Origin: Candidatus Berkelbacteria bacterium
GTDB taxonomy: Bacteria; Patescibacteriota; UBA1384; XYA2-FULL-43-10; CAINNR01
Direction of reading: 5' to 3'
Assembly (NCBI GenBank): GCA_026397235.1
Contig: JAPLVG010000016.1
Coordinates: forward strand, 4,121-50,980
Length of the DNA stretch: 46,860 bases
Positions 25,250-45,965 of the stretch are shown here, piece after piece; position 1 is the first letter of the stretch, and every line of letters starts with the position of its first letter. The position numbers and the translations under genes were made by a program. The notes below the pieces were generated by a model that saw nothing but the letters and a program-made list of their open reading frames with translations, searched no databases and was not told where the DNA came from.

Positions 25250-25429
25250 CTAATGGTTTGAGTAAAGCCAGTTACGAGCCCAGCTTCGAATCTGCCGGTC
25301 CCGATCAATCAGCAACTGCCCGAGAGGTGAATCATTGGCAAATCCATGATCACCACTACCGACGGACTTTGTCAGGTCGCTGTCCAGCCAGAGTGCCAGA
25401 AGGATGAGTTGCCTGGCAAGCCATTTCAT
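25250..25429 (-). CDS. small hypothetical protein (59 aa, not in the ORF track)
   Basis: MKWLARQLILLALWLDSD...NWLYSNH*. GGAGG RBS, TTGACC-17-TAGTAT upstream, terminator at 25181-25211. Confidence 0.55.
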   Translation of the reverse strand: MKWLARQLILLALWLDSDLTKSVGSGDHGFANDSPLGQLLIDRDRQIRSWARNWLYSNH

Positions 25430-25495
25430 TTCCGATTGCCTCCAGTATTTACGCGGTTTGACAATATACTATTATATAAACTGTTTTTGGTCAAG

Positions 25496-25540
25496 ATTTC
25501 CGACCGATTTTGATCGATCGGTCACAATCGGTCGGAAAAT
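25496..25540. repeat. CGATCG-centred palindromic repeat, copy A
   Basis: TTCCGACCGATTTTGATCGATCGGTCACAATCGGTCGGAA, a close match to 43698 and 44295. Confidence 0.85.
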
Positions 25541-25567
25541 TGGTTTTGTTGATAAATACTTAAGTTG

Positions 25568-25597
25568 TTGACAGAATAACTGGTCATCAGTTATAGT
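25568..25597 (+). promoter_or_regulatory. promoter with overlapping operator palindrome for the AbrB-ABC operon
   Basis: TTGACA-18-TATAGT. The inverted repeat ATAACTG-N5-CAGTTAT (25576-25594) spans the spacer and -10 box. Confidence 0.6.
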
Positions 25598-25627
25598 TAT
25601 TTTACTGATCATATAATTCATACAAGT

Positions 25628-25855
25628 ATGTTAGACAAAGAATTTTTTGGATCGACGACAATTGGCGAACGCGGACAAGTTGTTATCCCAATTGAAGCAA
25701 GAAAAGCGCTTAATGTAGAAAAAGGAGAAAAGCTTTTAGTTTTTGGTGTTCACAAAGATACAATTGTTATTACCAAGCTTTCCTCTTTCAAAAAGATGTC
25801 AGCTGAAATGGCAAAACGTCAAAAAGATATTGAAGGAATGCTGGAAAAATTATAA
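25628..25855 (+). CDS. AbrB/MazE/SpoVT family DNA-binding protein
   Basis: TTIGERGQVVIPIEARKALNVEKGEKL. Confidence 0.9.
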   Translation: MLDKEFFGSTTIGERGQVVIPIEARKALNVEKGEKLLVFGVHKDTIVITKLSSFKKMSAEMAKRQKDIEGMLEKL

Positions 25856-25922
25856 TCAATCCATTGTATTAAGATTGCCGCGAGCCAAAAAACATCGGCT
25901 CTCGCAATGACGAACCAAAAAT

Positions 25923-29786: not shown

Positions 29787-29836
29787 CTAAAAAATTACTG
29801 ATTTTGACCGATCGGTACAAATCAGTAATTTTTTAG
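29787..29836. repeat. CGATCG-centred palindromic repeat, copy B (diverged arms)
   Basis: CTAAAAAATTACTGATTTTGACCGATCGGTACAAATCAGTAATTTTTTAG. Confidence 0.75.
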
Positions 29837-43609: not shown

Positions 43610-43697
43610 ATCATTTTGCTAATGCGGGGAAAATTATTTAACACCTCGTTTTTTTTATTGTTTTTAATTATCGACCATCATCAGTTTTTACTATCCC

Positions 43698-43731
43698 GAC
43701 CGATATTAACCGATCGGTCACAATCAGTCGG
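43698..43731. repeat. CGATCG-centred palindromic repeat, copy C
   Basis: GACCGATATTAACCGATCGGTCACAATCAGTCGG, identical to 44295-44328. Confidence 0.92.
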
Positions 43732-43734
43732 AGA

Positions 43735-44271
43735 TCAGAAGAGTTTCTTGATATGGTCGTCAACATTACTTTTATCGACAATGAAATACGAGACATATTC
43801 ACGGATGCCGAGCTCGTCAACCACCAAATCAATTTCATCTGCTTTGTTGAAGCGACAAACCCACAAACTTTTTTGCAGTTTCTTGTAGCCGATTCGTCGC
43901 AAAGTTCGGCAAAATTGATGTCTCCTTTTGCAATGCTCTTCTGGAATGTCGTAGGAAATAATTCTAATTTTACCGTCCGATTCGCTGTTTTTGGGATTTT
44001 CCAAATTCTTGATTTTGCCTCTCGTCGTCAGGCGGACAGAGTAAGATCCGTCAATTTTCTTTAGTTCGATGTAGCCTCGCTTGTCCATACTTCTCAAATT
44101 GTCGATTAATTGATCGGCGAGAAATCCATGGCCGTCGATATTTTTGTGATCAATGAATGATCCGAGTAATGCCTCAGGAATTCGGGCGATTATGCTGAGA
44201 ATAGTCCAAGTGATTTCACCCGAAACTTGGCCGATTTTATTCAGAGTTTCTTTTCCCGTCTCTTTTTTCAT
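43735..44271 (-). CDS. PaaX-like protein: winged HTH plus Cas2-like ferredoxin-fold domain (178 aa)
   Basis: L..M.KRGYI.....RLTTRGK wHTH; IISYDIPE...RR..F...LRRIGY..LQKSLW Cas2/PaaX-central motif. TGATATAAT lies 7 nt before ATG 44271. Confidence 0.85.
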   Translation of the reverse strand: MKKETGKETLNKIGQVSGEITWTILSIIARIPEALLGSFIDHKNIDGHGFLADQLIDNLRSMDKRGYIELKKIDGSYSVRLTTRGKIKNLENPKNSESDGKIRIISYDIPEEHCKRRHQFCRTLRRIGYKKLQKSLWVCRFNKADEIDLVVDELGIREYVSYFIVDKSNVDDHIKKLF

Positions 44272-44294
44272 TACAATTATTATATCAAACTTCA

Positions 44295-44328
44295 GACCGA
44301 TATTAACCGATCGGTCACAATCAGTCGG
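44295..44328. repeat. CGATCG-centred palindromic repeat, copy D
   Basis: Identical 34-bp direct repeat of 43698-43731. Confidence 0.92.
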
Positions 44329-44409
44329 GGATTGGTGCCGATGATCGGTGGAAAAAGCGCTGAACATAATAAATAGCATTAAAAATAGGAAAAATTGTTG
44401 TAGCACTTG

Positions 44410-44467
<58 letters not shown>

Positions 44468-44531
44468 TGGAATTAGAAACTAGAATTAATTAATCCTTGG
44501 ATTTAGTCCAAGATAAAATTTGGAGGTATTT

Positions 44532-45110
44532 ATGCCAGGTGGAGTAGAAGGATCACCACAGGAGCTTTATAATGAGCGTGGACAAGTGAAAGATCCAGAA
44601 ATTGCACAAGAAATGGCCAAAGTTGAGAAACCATTTCGCGAAAAAAAAGTTTTAGGGATTTTCAAGCCCTCCAATAAACGGATAAAAGAAGGGGAACAAC
44701 GGGCTGAAAATTTGGGCAAGGACTTGCGAATTGAAAAAGAAGATAAAAATGGTTTGGGCAGCGCTCAGCATAAACAAAATGGTCAAGAAAATTTAGCGGC
44801 CACTGAACAGGGAGAATTAATTGATGACATTATTCCAATATCTGTGAGTTGTGAAAACCGAACTAATGTACGAGATCCTGAGTGCATGAATAACCCTGAA
44901 TTGATCAGATACAGTCTTGAAAGACATGCCAAACAGAGACTGGGTGAAAGCTGGAAAGAAAAAGTAAAAAGCTTCAATATCCATTTGACAGTCGAGGATA
45001 ATTTAGCTCGTAATGGAAATGTTTTTATCTATTCTGATCAAGTTATAATGAAAGATGGGACAGTGGTTGAACTAGGTGTGGGTCGTACACCAGATTTATC
45101 TTTTTTCTGA
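44532..45110 (+). CDS. hypothetical protein
   Basis: GGAGG RBS, charged 192-aa ORF, followed by a terminator. Confidence 0.7.
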   Translation: MPGGVEGSPQELYNERGQVKDPEIAQEMAKVEKPFREKKVLGIFKPSNKRIKEGEQRAENLGKDLRIEKEDKNGLGSAQHKQNGQENLAATEQGELIDDIIPISVSCENRTNVRDPECMNNPELIRYSLERHAKQRLGESWKEKVKSFNIHLTVEDNLARNGNVFIYSDQVIMKDGTVVELGVGRTPDLSFF

Positions 45111-45127
45111 AAATAAGGCGATTTGCT

Positions 45128-45156
45128 AAAAAAAACCAGCTTCGGCTGGTTTTTTT
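45128..45156. terminator. bidirectional intrinsic terminator
   Basis: A8-CCAGC-TTCG-GCTGG-T7. Confidence 0.85.
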
Positions 45157-45206
45157 GGTAGAGGCAATATTTATCAGTCGGTGGGATATTTTGCTATACT
45201 TAATTT

Positions 45207-45965
45207 ATGCGATATTCTCATCCACTACAAAAAAGCAGTAAGCATCACATTTTAAAGCACCATTTTACCAGTGGCGCTATTAGCTGGGCTTGGATTTTGG
45301 CAGCATTTTTAGTTGTAGGTTTTGTTTTTAGTTTTTCTAGTTTAAGCTGGAATCAGATTCTGGGCGGATTTGTCGTCAGCCTAATTCGCACCAGTATTTC
45401 CTATATTATAGCCGCAACACTTGCTATCATTATCGCTCTGGCTATGACTTCGAGTCGTTGGTTAGAAGGATTATTGTTGCCGGTTTTTGATGTCCTGCAG
45501 AGTTTTCCAAGCTTTGCCTTATTCCCAGTTTTAGTTGTAGCACTACGAAATTCTCCAGAGTTCATTATCATCATCGTTTTAACTATAACCATGATCTGGC
45601 CGATACTCTTCTCAATTATTGGTGGAATAAAAAATCGCCGCCAAGATTTTGAAGAAGCGGCAACTATTTTTGGCGCTCGTGGTTCGAAACGCTTAGTCCA
45701 TTTCGTGTTTCCCGAGCTCATGCCGTCAATTGTAACCGGCTCAATTGTTGGATGGGGTGAAGGCTGGGAATTCATTATCGGTGCCGAACTTTTGGTTAAA
45801 ACTAACATCGGCATAGGATCATATCTTGGATTTTTAGGACAGAATCAAAAAAATGTTGCTTTGGCGTTTGGAATTATTATTTTGCTAATGCTTTTGTTTG
45901 TTATTAATAAATTAATTTGGTTGCCGCTACTCACGCGAGCTACCAATTATAGTTCGGAGTCATAA
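45207..45965 (+). CDS. NitT/TauT-type ABC transporter permease
   Basis: DVLQSFP.FA.FP, EEAATIFGA (EAA loop), W..IIGAELL. Confidence 0.9.
   Translation: MRYSHPLQKSSKHHILKHHFTSGAISWAWILAAFLVVGFVFSFSSLSWNQILGGFVVSLIRTSISYIIAATLAIIIALAMTSSRWLEGLLLPVFDVLQSFPSFALFPVLVVALRNSPEFIIIIVLTITMIWPILFSIIGGIKNRRQDFEEAATIFGARGSKRLVHFVFPELMPSIVTGSIVGWGEGWEFIIGAELLVKTNIGIGSYLGFLGQNQKNVALAFGIIILLMLLFVINKLIWLPLLTRATNYSSES

Follow-up and report, generated by a model that had tools for sequence, protein, structure and literature searches.

A short protein with a Cas2-like domain between identical palindromes in Candidatus Berkelbacteria: a candidate family of dimeric autorepressors

Organization of the locus

The window analyzed here, which is the whole stretch of DNA under study, comprises 46,860 nt of Candidatus Berkelbacteria bacterium (GCA_026397235.1, contig JAPLVG010000016.1, positions 4,121–50,980, forward strand). 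The assembly, referred to below as genome G000, has a size of 925 kb, a G+C content of 40% and a completeness of 99.7%. The features described in this work are compiled in Table 1, and the central one is a gene for a protein of 178 amino acids, which is framed by two copies of a palindromic repeat. An exact 34-mer occurs exactly twice in the window and is expected 0 times, as judged from 100 shuffles, which bears out the identical 34-bp repeats reported in the initial annotation. If the flanks are included, the pair extends to a direct repeat of 38 nt with 97% identity. Each copy is an imperfect palindrome, in which 13–14 of the 18 arm positions are paired and the centre reads CGATCG. Moreover, the two copies are also identical at linker positions that are free of the symmetry constraint.

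A single promoter-like site was found on the minus strand, with its −35 box inside the upstream repeat. Its −10 hexamer lies 10 nt past this repeat and ends 7 nt ahead of the ATG, and the mRNA is therefore predicted to be leaderless. The coordinates of both copies and of the promoter agree with the earlier description, which had placed one copy 3 bp from the stop codon and the other 10 bp from the −10 box, over the −35 position. That description had also stated that neither cas1 nor a CRISPR array is present, and this holds for the genome as a whole: a profile search with PF01867 for Cas1 gave 0 matches in this assembly of 99.7% completeness, and a crude scan for CRISPR-like arrays gave 0 as well.

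Table 1. Coordinates of the features in the window.
Feature	Position	Strand	Remarks
Gene, 178 aa: winged helix (about residues 20–90) and Cas2-like/PaaX_M domain (about residues 97–178)	43735..44271	-	Stop codon 43735–43737
Downstream palindrome copy	43698..43731 (extended palindrome 43695–43732)		3 bp beyond the stop codon
Upstream palindrome copy, candidate operator	44295..44328		Same 34 bp, direct orientation; spans the −35 box
Promoter-like site	44279..44306	-	−35 TTAATA (44306–44301), 16-nt spacer, TG-extended −10 TATAAT (44284–44279)
Solo palindrome relative, candidate trans target	25500..25539		84% identical at 25502–25539; 4 mismatches in 36; between divergent promoter-like sites
Diverged palindrome relative	29796..29833		66% identical; different outer arms; A-run/T-run flanks, convergent genes; terminator-like
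G000-specific segment, 1597 bp	43610..45206		Three relatives lack it between the two transporter genes

Domains and predicted structure of the protein

The sole Pfam match of the protein is PaaX_M, the “central Cas2-like domain” (PF20803; E = 5.2e-15, 55.7 bits against a cut-off of 24, residues 97–171), and the protein stops directly after this domain. The NCBIfam model TIGR01573 (cas2) is passed marginally, with 24.9 bits against a cut-off of 24.5 and over residues 103–146 only. A PADLOC search returned Cas2 models only, with a best E of 6.3e-7, a PHROGs search of the protein returned no match, and the PDB gave only weak matches by sequence. The PaaX equivalog model TIGR02277 scores 15.4 bits against a cut-off of 264.55. 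PF08223 (PaaX_C), which is thought to bind the effector, was found neither in the protein nor elsewhere in the genome, and PF07848, the winged helix at the N-terminus of PaaX, did not match the protein even with E allowed up to 1.

An AlphaFold2 model, based on 110 homologues, has a mean pLDDT of 81.7, which is high from residue 55 on and poor over the N-terminal 55 residues. A winged-helix fold is predicted in this model, and the sequence search gave generic MarR/AspA-like matches. In a structural search with Foldseek, the best match was E. coli PaaX (8a39; E 1.6e-3, probability 1.00), and the next ranks were taken by Rv0674, VapD and numerous chains of Cas2. The initial annotation had described a PaaX-type winged helix plus a Cas2/VapD-like domain. 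The Cas2-like part of this description is supported by the matches and the winged helix by the predicted fold, but the PaaX type of the winged helix is left without its Pfam match (PF07848).

As a homodimer, the protein obtained a prediction score of 0.42, versus 0.00 for the best of three controls. Among proteins of solved structure, this mark is reached by 20 of 30 one-chain pairs and by 1 of 23 single chains. The contacts agree between runs at a level of at least 97%, and the pLDDT of the partner is 76. This pass may be partly owed to the solved dimers of Cas2 or PaaX. The predicted interface is formed by the Cas2-like domain and includes residues 132–136, which would therefore put residue 134 at the two-fold axis, matching the co-variation described below. 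In all 110 sequences, Asp108, Arg117 and Ser135 are invariant. Asp108 is the counterpart of the metal-binding Asp of Cas2 and falls within the predicted dimer interface; to judge from this invariant residue, the protein may possess a nuclease or catalytic activity.

Paralogs and the wider family

The gene had been regarded as an orphan. In fact, the genome contains 11 full paralogs and one fragment, as identified by tblastn and the Pfam model (11 PF20803 matches over the cut-off). Identity to the 178-aa protein ranges from 23 to 60% among the paralogs, and recent copying is therefore not indicated. All 11 possess a private palindrome of 34–40 bp just before the start codon and a matching one 0–60 nt past the stop codon. 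The outer arms differ among paralogs, and the centre is usually CGATCG, else CACGTG, GCGGCCGC or CCGTTCGG. The neighbour genes of the paralogs show no conservation.

We then analyzed this arrangement in a larger set of 133 stretches, which consisted of the locus itself, 10 paralog loci, 22 loci of named genomes and 100 regions from 34 related genomes. These stretches yielded 123 genes and 113 unique proteins, 110 of them with sufficient flanking DNA. The best 30-nt match between upstream and downstream flanks reached at least 24 in 89 of the 110 loci (median 27); none of 326 cross-locus pairs reached this value, and the maximum in 330 dinucleotide shuffles was 22. A good palindrome on both sides together with the flank match was present at 62 of the 110 loci. 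The expectation that homologues would each be flanked by their own co-evolving palindrome agrees with these matched flanks, seen at 89 of the 110 loci, and with the residue–base co-variation given in the next section.

The family is large: with an E limit of 0.001, there are 6,601 representatives of clusters at 50% identity, and a limit of 1e-10 leaves 5,006 of them. The best 150 of the 6,601 representatives are 121–253 aa long, and no longer or fused forms were found among proteins of 371–2000 aa, which argues weakly against such forms. In a second search, 105 of 106 matches carried PF20803. The few names given in the sources were “hypothetical”, “CRISPR-associated endonuclease Cas2”, “PadR family” and “PaaX”. 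The number of copies per genome varies from 0 to 14 among 41 relatives, with 12 in G000 and 1, 3 and 2 in its three congeners. In the literature searched, we found no paper on the short form, on the flanking palindromes or on PaaX together with Cas2/VapD.

Symmetry of the palindromes and co-variation with the protein

Pairing within the palindromes depends on the distance from the dyad: positions 1–3 are paired in 93–99% of the sites, positions 4–11 in 67–84% and positions 12–18 in 81–96%. In 78 of 85 upstream and 66 of 76 downstream sites, the four central bases are complementary to themselves. This bipartite symmetry with its self-complementary centre is what a protein of two-fold symmetry would require of duplex DNA, and it does not suit the loop of a hairpin.

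The distinction matters for a rival explanation, in which the element is a hairpin with a cognate nuclease or RNA-binding protein, so that RNA or single-stranded DNA hairpins, similar to REP-like stabilisers or terminators, would be bound or cut in a RAYT-like way. A hairpin requires an unpaired apex and a continuous stem. Here the arrangement is the reverse, as the sites are self-complementary up to the dyad and least paired in the middle of the would-be stem, and the earlier view of the repeat as a CRISPR-repeat-like hairpin is accordingly unlikely. The downstream copy is transcribed and, as minus-strand RNA, folds well (−24.4 kcal/mol, z −2.7), which favours the hairpin explanation; it has no U-tract. 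Among the relatives, only 21 of 78 downstream palindromes carry a T-rich tail, and these palindromes are therefore not ordinary terminators. The upstream copy, moreover, precedes the predicted transcription start and hence lies outside the mRNA.

Changes in the palindromes are accompanied by changes in the protein. When residue 134, in the Q-K-S turn, is Lys, the base next to the dyad is T in 62 cases and A in 3, never C or G, and ambiguous in 7 (97 loci analyzed); when it is Gln or Glu, this base is C or G in 15 of 16. Residue 118, in the first helix of the Cas2-like domain, co-varies with position 4 of the palindrome: Asn is accompanied by T in 22 of 27 cases and Gln by A in 8 of 9, Arg is found with G (4 of 6) and Asp mostly with C (21 of 47). 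Residues 114, 118 and 121 form one face of this helix, and all three co-vary with the palindrome. In the winged helix, residue 61 co-varies with position 15 of the arm. The pairings of Arg with G and of Asn/Gln with T/A show the pattern of base reading, which speaks against the hairpin explanation.

We also counted independent pairs on a tree that was built without the co-varying columns. Residue 134 and position 1 give 6 independent pairs; 5.6 of these agree in direction and 0 run against it (p about 0.03). For Asn118 and T at position 4, 9.2 of 13 pairs agree and 0.4 disagree (p about 0.004). The other residue–base pairings run in the same direction on the tree, with too few pairs.

The overlap with the promoter recurs in the family. 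In 56 of 72 relatives, the upstream palindrome contains a −10-like hexamer or has one next to it, and in 29 of these 56 the hexamer ends 6–9 nt ahead of the start codon. The helical phasing of the two sites was analyzed at 62 loci, where it peaks at 10.35 bp, with p = 0.002 within 10.2–10.7 and p = 0.15 as a global peak; after thinning of related sequences, p is 0.04–0.09 and the peak is no longer the highest, and phasing with the helix is only weakly suggested.

Solo palindromes and the hairpin explanation

Two further copies of the repeat had been placed at 25496 and 29787. They turned out to be diverged relatives, 6–9 nt off these places (Table 1). The first of them lies between two promoter-like sites, one belonging to a minus-strand ORF of 59 aa and the other to a plus-strand ORF that is AbrB-like and followed by two ABC exporter genes. 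Within 25256–25856 of the window, the 59-aa ORF is GC-richer and has a terminator, and both small ORFs are unannotated. The plus-strand ORF ahead of the two exporter genes has 75 aa and looks AbrB/SpoVT-like by eye. The palindrome of the gene has three solo relatives in total, and only the one at 25500 lies among promoter-like sites; of the others, one lies between convergent genes and one 43 nt past a gene end.

Across the paralogs, each palindrome has 0–3 solo relatives, all intergenic, some of them between convergent gene ends and some at promoters. We rejected the idea that solo sites are scars of lost cassettes, since the orthologous places of two of them hold no family gene (11 loci, 7 relatives). 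At G000:C8:8573-8608 and G006:C9:735-768, different members of the palindrome set occupy equivalent positions, 3 nt past the stop codon of a conserved gene that the two genomes share. The arms of the two sites differ by mirrored changes, and solo sites therefore stay palindromic while diverging.

Several solo sites are located 3–6 nt past stop codons or between convergent genes, as would be expected of hairpins, and relatives such as Cas2 and VapD are reported to be nucleases. Nevertheless, 0–3 solo copies per paralog do not amount to a dispersed repeat family. The genome also has a RAYT-like gene flanked by hairpins, which would suit the hairpin explanation. This Y1-transposase-like (RAYT/IS200-like) gene, at G000:C22:5461-6220, scores 27 bits against a cut-off of 23 and is flanked by a pair of hairpins of its own, CCAAAGTACACCT...AGGTGTACTTTGG, without relation to the present palindromes. 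It is the only Y1-like gene of the genome, and the HUH/Y1 transposase flanked by the same repeat that had been proposed as something to look for was thus not found. Taking these points with the symmetry and the co-variation, we regard the hairpin explanation as unlikely and favour a protein that reads the palindromes as duplex DNA.

Comparison of orthologous loci

The initial annotation had also proposed that the repeat–gene–repeat unit is a cassette that inserts at a solo repeat or excises to leave one. In this explanation, the palindromes are recombination sites at which the Cas2-like domain nicks and joins DNA, and insertion at a solo palindrome would duplicate it. Comparison with related genomes shows presence and absence of the unit, as such a cassette would, and the copy number given above is very uneven across related genomes. 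However, the sites that are empty do not have the form that the proposal predicts. In G001 and G002, which belong to the same genus, and in G009, the stop codon of the ABC-2 permease gene is followed by the start of the next transporter gene 3–5 nt on, without a palindrome. At a second paralog locus, the cassette is missing in G001–G003, with gaps of 19–59 bp and no palindrome, and it is present in G009 with 81% identity and a downstream palindrome that shows a symmetric double change. At a third paralog locus, the cassette is missing in G003, where a gap of 30 bp again holds no palindrome. The missing segments at the three loci measure 1597 bp, about 1.2 kb and about 0.8 kb, and all of them exceed the repeat-bounded unit. 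The units are therefore gained and lost within larger segments, and the palindromes are not the joints. A search for empty sites that retain a solo repeat accordingly gave three empty orthologous sites, none of them with a repeat, and a segment of 1597 bp instead of 597 bp.

Besides a spacer and the gene with its two palindromes, the 1597-bp segment contains an (ACT)19 promoter element and a 196-aa ORF. It splits a transporter operon that is tightly packed in the three relatives, and it supplies a terminator of its own as well as a new promoter for the genes that follow. Near both ends of the segment lies a 9-nt direct repeat, ATTTTGCTA, which is absent from the empty sites and may be due to chance. 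At the −35 position of the new promoter, ATCAGTCGG (45173–45181) is a 9-nt match to the right arm of the palindrome. The (ACT)n promoter element, GCACTTGACT followed by (ACT)n, lies within 44389–44530 of the window and points away from the gene, with n = 19.3 (44410–44467). Within the set of 110 loci, 9 other cassettes are preceded by the same element, their n ranging from about 1 to 15, and a further match to its motif, in L155, is without the ACT run. As n varies, the spacing between −35 and −10 therefore changes in steps of 3. The ORF driven by the element (44532–45110, 192–196 aa) gave no Pfam, PADLOC or PHROGs match, and it has one paralog, at G000:C5:31896-32717, which likewise adjoins a family gene with the same promoter element.

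In the contigs of four sequencing runs, three of them from an independent study, the cassette is unchanged and no junction skips the gene. This is a weak argument against excision, since contigs drop rare forms; the run contigs also break at the 34-bp repeats. In run X1, a contig of 1563 nt touches 43649–43666 and 45307–45336 with two letters between them, the matches of 18 and 30 nt being short. This contig might stem from a co-occurring relative without the inserted segment.

Where the orientation of the flanking copies could be told from a difference of at least 3 matches, it was direct at 17 loci and inverted at 4. The direct orientation, together with the identity of the 34 bp even at unconstrained positions, suggests duplication or gene conversion besides selection. 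Both features would also agree with a mobile cassette, as would the invariant Asp108 and the existence of diverged solo palindromes. Against it stand the three empty sites out of three without a palindrome and the size of the missing segments, together with the lack of a family gene at the places orthologous to solo sites, the divergence of the paralogs without recent copies and the absence of Cas1. We therefore consider a mobile cassette of this kind very unlikely.

It may also be asked whether a Cas2-like dimer, with its invariant pair of Asp108 at the dyad, nicks or exchanges strands at the centre of the palindrome, in which case the identity of the flanking copies would result from duplication or conversion driven by the protein. 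This is the least probable of the explanations weighed here. If true, it would constitute a Cas1-free relative of the handling of CRISPR repeats and would give a hint of how Cas2 came to repeats.

Proposed function

The explanation that we consider probable is that the gene encodes a shortened, dimeric repressor of the PaaX type, which binds the palindrome as duplex DNA and shuts its own leaderless promoter. The observed architecture, with its conservation, symmetry, co-variation and promoter overlap, leads us to infer binding, dimerisation, repression and a role of the second site. Such a repressor would consist of a winged helix followed by the Cas2-like middle domain and would lack the C-terminal domain that binds the ligand. 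Two subunits would pair through their Cas2-like domains, and the paired domains would contact the middle of the 36-bp palindrome, where they would recognise about 4 bp to either side of the dyad. The outer arms, about 12–18 bp from the dyad, would be recognised by the two winged helices. On the upstream copy, the dimer would cover the −35 box and thereby repress the leaderless promoter of its own gene. The earlier suggestion that the protein binds its own repeat and regulates itself thus gains indirect support from the overlap with the −35 box, the layout shared by 89 of 110 loci and the residue–base co-variation.

Simple autorepression has no need of a second site after the stop codon. The copy at this place would be a second binding site, which most likely either serves the looping of the gene of about 600 bp or acts as a protein roadblock. 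Looping would strengthen the repression, and a roadblock would insulate the unit from neighbouring transcription. A few of the diverged solo sites may be targets in trans. The copy number of 12, versus 1, 3 and 2 in the congeners, would not be expected of housekeeping regulators and agrees with a selfish or accessory nature of the genes.

Recognisable regulators are very scarce in bacteria of the candidate phyla radiation (CPR). In the 925-kb genome studied here, 11 genes come from a single family, yet its members are named “hypothetical” or, misleadingly, “Cas2”. The proposal provides a testable model of recognition, in which single residues predict single bases, with the Cas2 fold on the centre of a 36-bp site and the winged helix on its arms. 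If confirmed, it would represent a new use of the Cas2 fold in sequence-specific DNA reading and would provide a set of naturally orthogonal repressor–operator pairs. Moreover, it would correct a common mis-annotation that swells the counts of “orphan Cas2”.

Comparison with known systems

The closest known system is PaaX, the phenylacetyl-CoA-responsive repressor of the paa operons (E. coli W structure 8a39; Pfam PF07848, PF20803 and PF08223), with which the protein shares the central Cas2-like domain (PF20803), the best fold match and a winged helix ahead of that domain. According to the review PMC9493321, PaaX of E. coli combines a winged helix, a dimerisation motif and an inducer-binding C-terminal domain, and it binds TGATTC-N27-GAATCA, an inverted repeat of 39 bp, to be compared with 36–40 bp here. 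E. coli PaaX also represses its own Px promoter by hindering RNA polymerase (PMC9493321), and the geometry of the sites and the −35 overlap found here, known from sequence, fit such autorepression. The differences are also clear. The protein has 178 aa instead of about 316, lacks PaaX_C and has no paa context. The centre of the palindrome is conserved here and co-varies with the Cas2-like domain. Furthermore, the gene is bracketed by two sites, and 11 paralogs have private sites.

With Cas2 and VapD, the protein shares the ferredoxin-like fold, sequence matches over residues 103–149, a predicted homodimer formed through the Cas2-like domain and the conserved Asp at the end of the first strand. 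It differs from Cas2 in that there is no Cas1 and no array, and in that a winged helix precedes the domain in the same protein. Judging from the co-variation, the protein would read duplex DNA in a sequence-specific manner, which Cas2 is not known to do. Unlike VapD, it has no adjacent antitoxin gene.

The REP/RAYT systems are similar in having a single gene between copies of a palindrome that it presumably recognises, with a few more copies in the genome. However, the protein has no Y1 domain and is no HUH/Y1 enzyme, there are 0–3 solo copies per paralog, the symmetry fits duplex binding and the Y1-like gene of the genome has hairpins unrelated to these palindromes.

LacI, GalR and DeoR are repressors with auxiliary operators and DNA looping. 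The locus resembles theirs in having a pair of identical sites that are separated by several hundred bp, one of which overlaps the promoter. It differs in that the second site lies regularly just past the stop codon of the regulator itself, and helical phasing is weakly suggested. Taken together, the architecture is real and strongly conserved, and no description of it was found in the literature searched. Its best reading is a PaaX-type repressor in shortened form, which would act as a dimer on its own gene and read DNA with a core of the Cas2 fold, and neither a CRISPR-like nor a transposon-like cassette.
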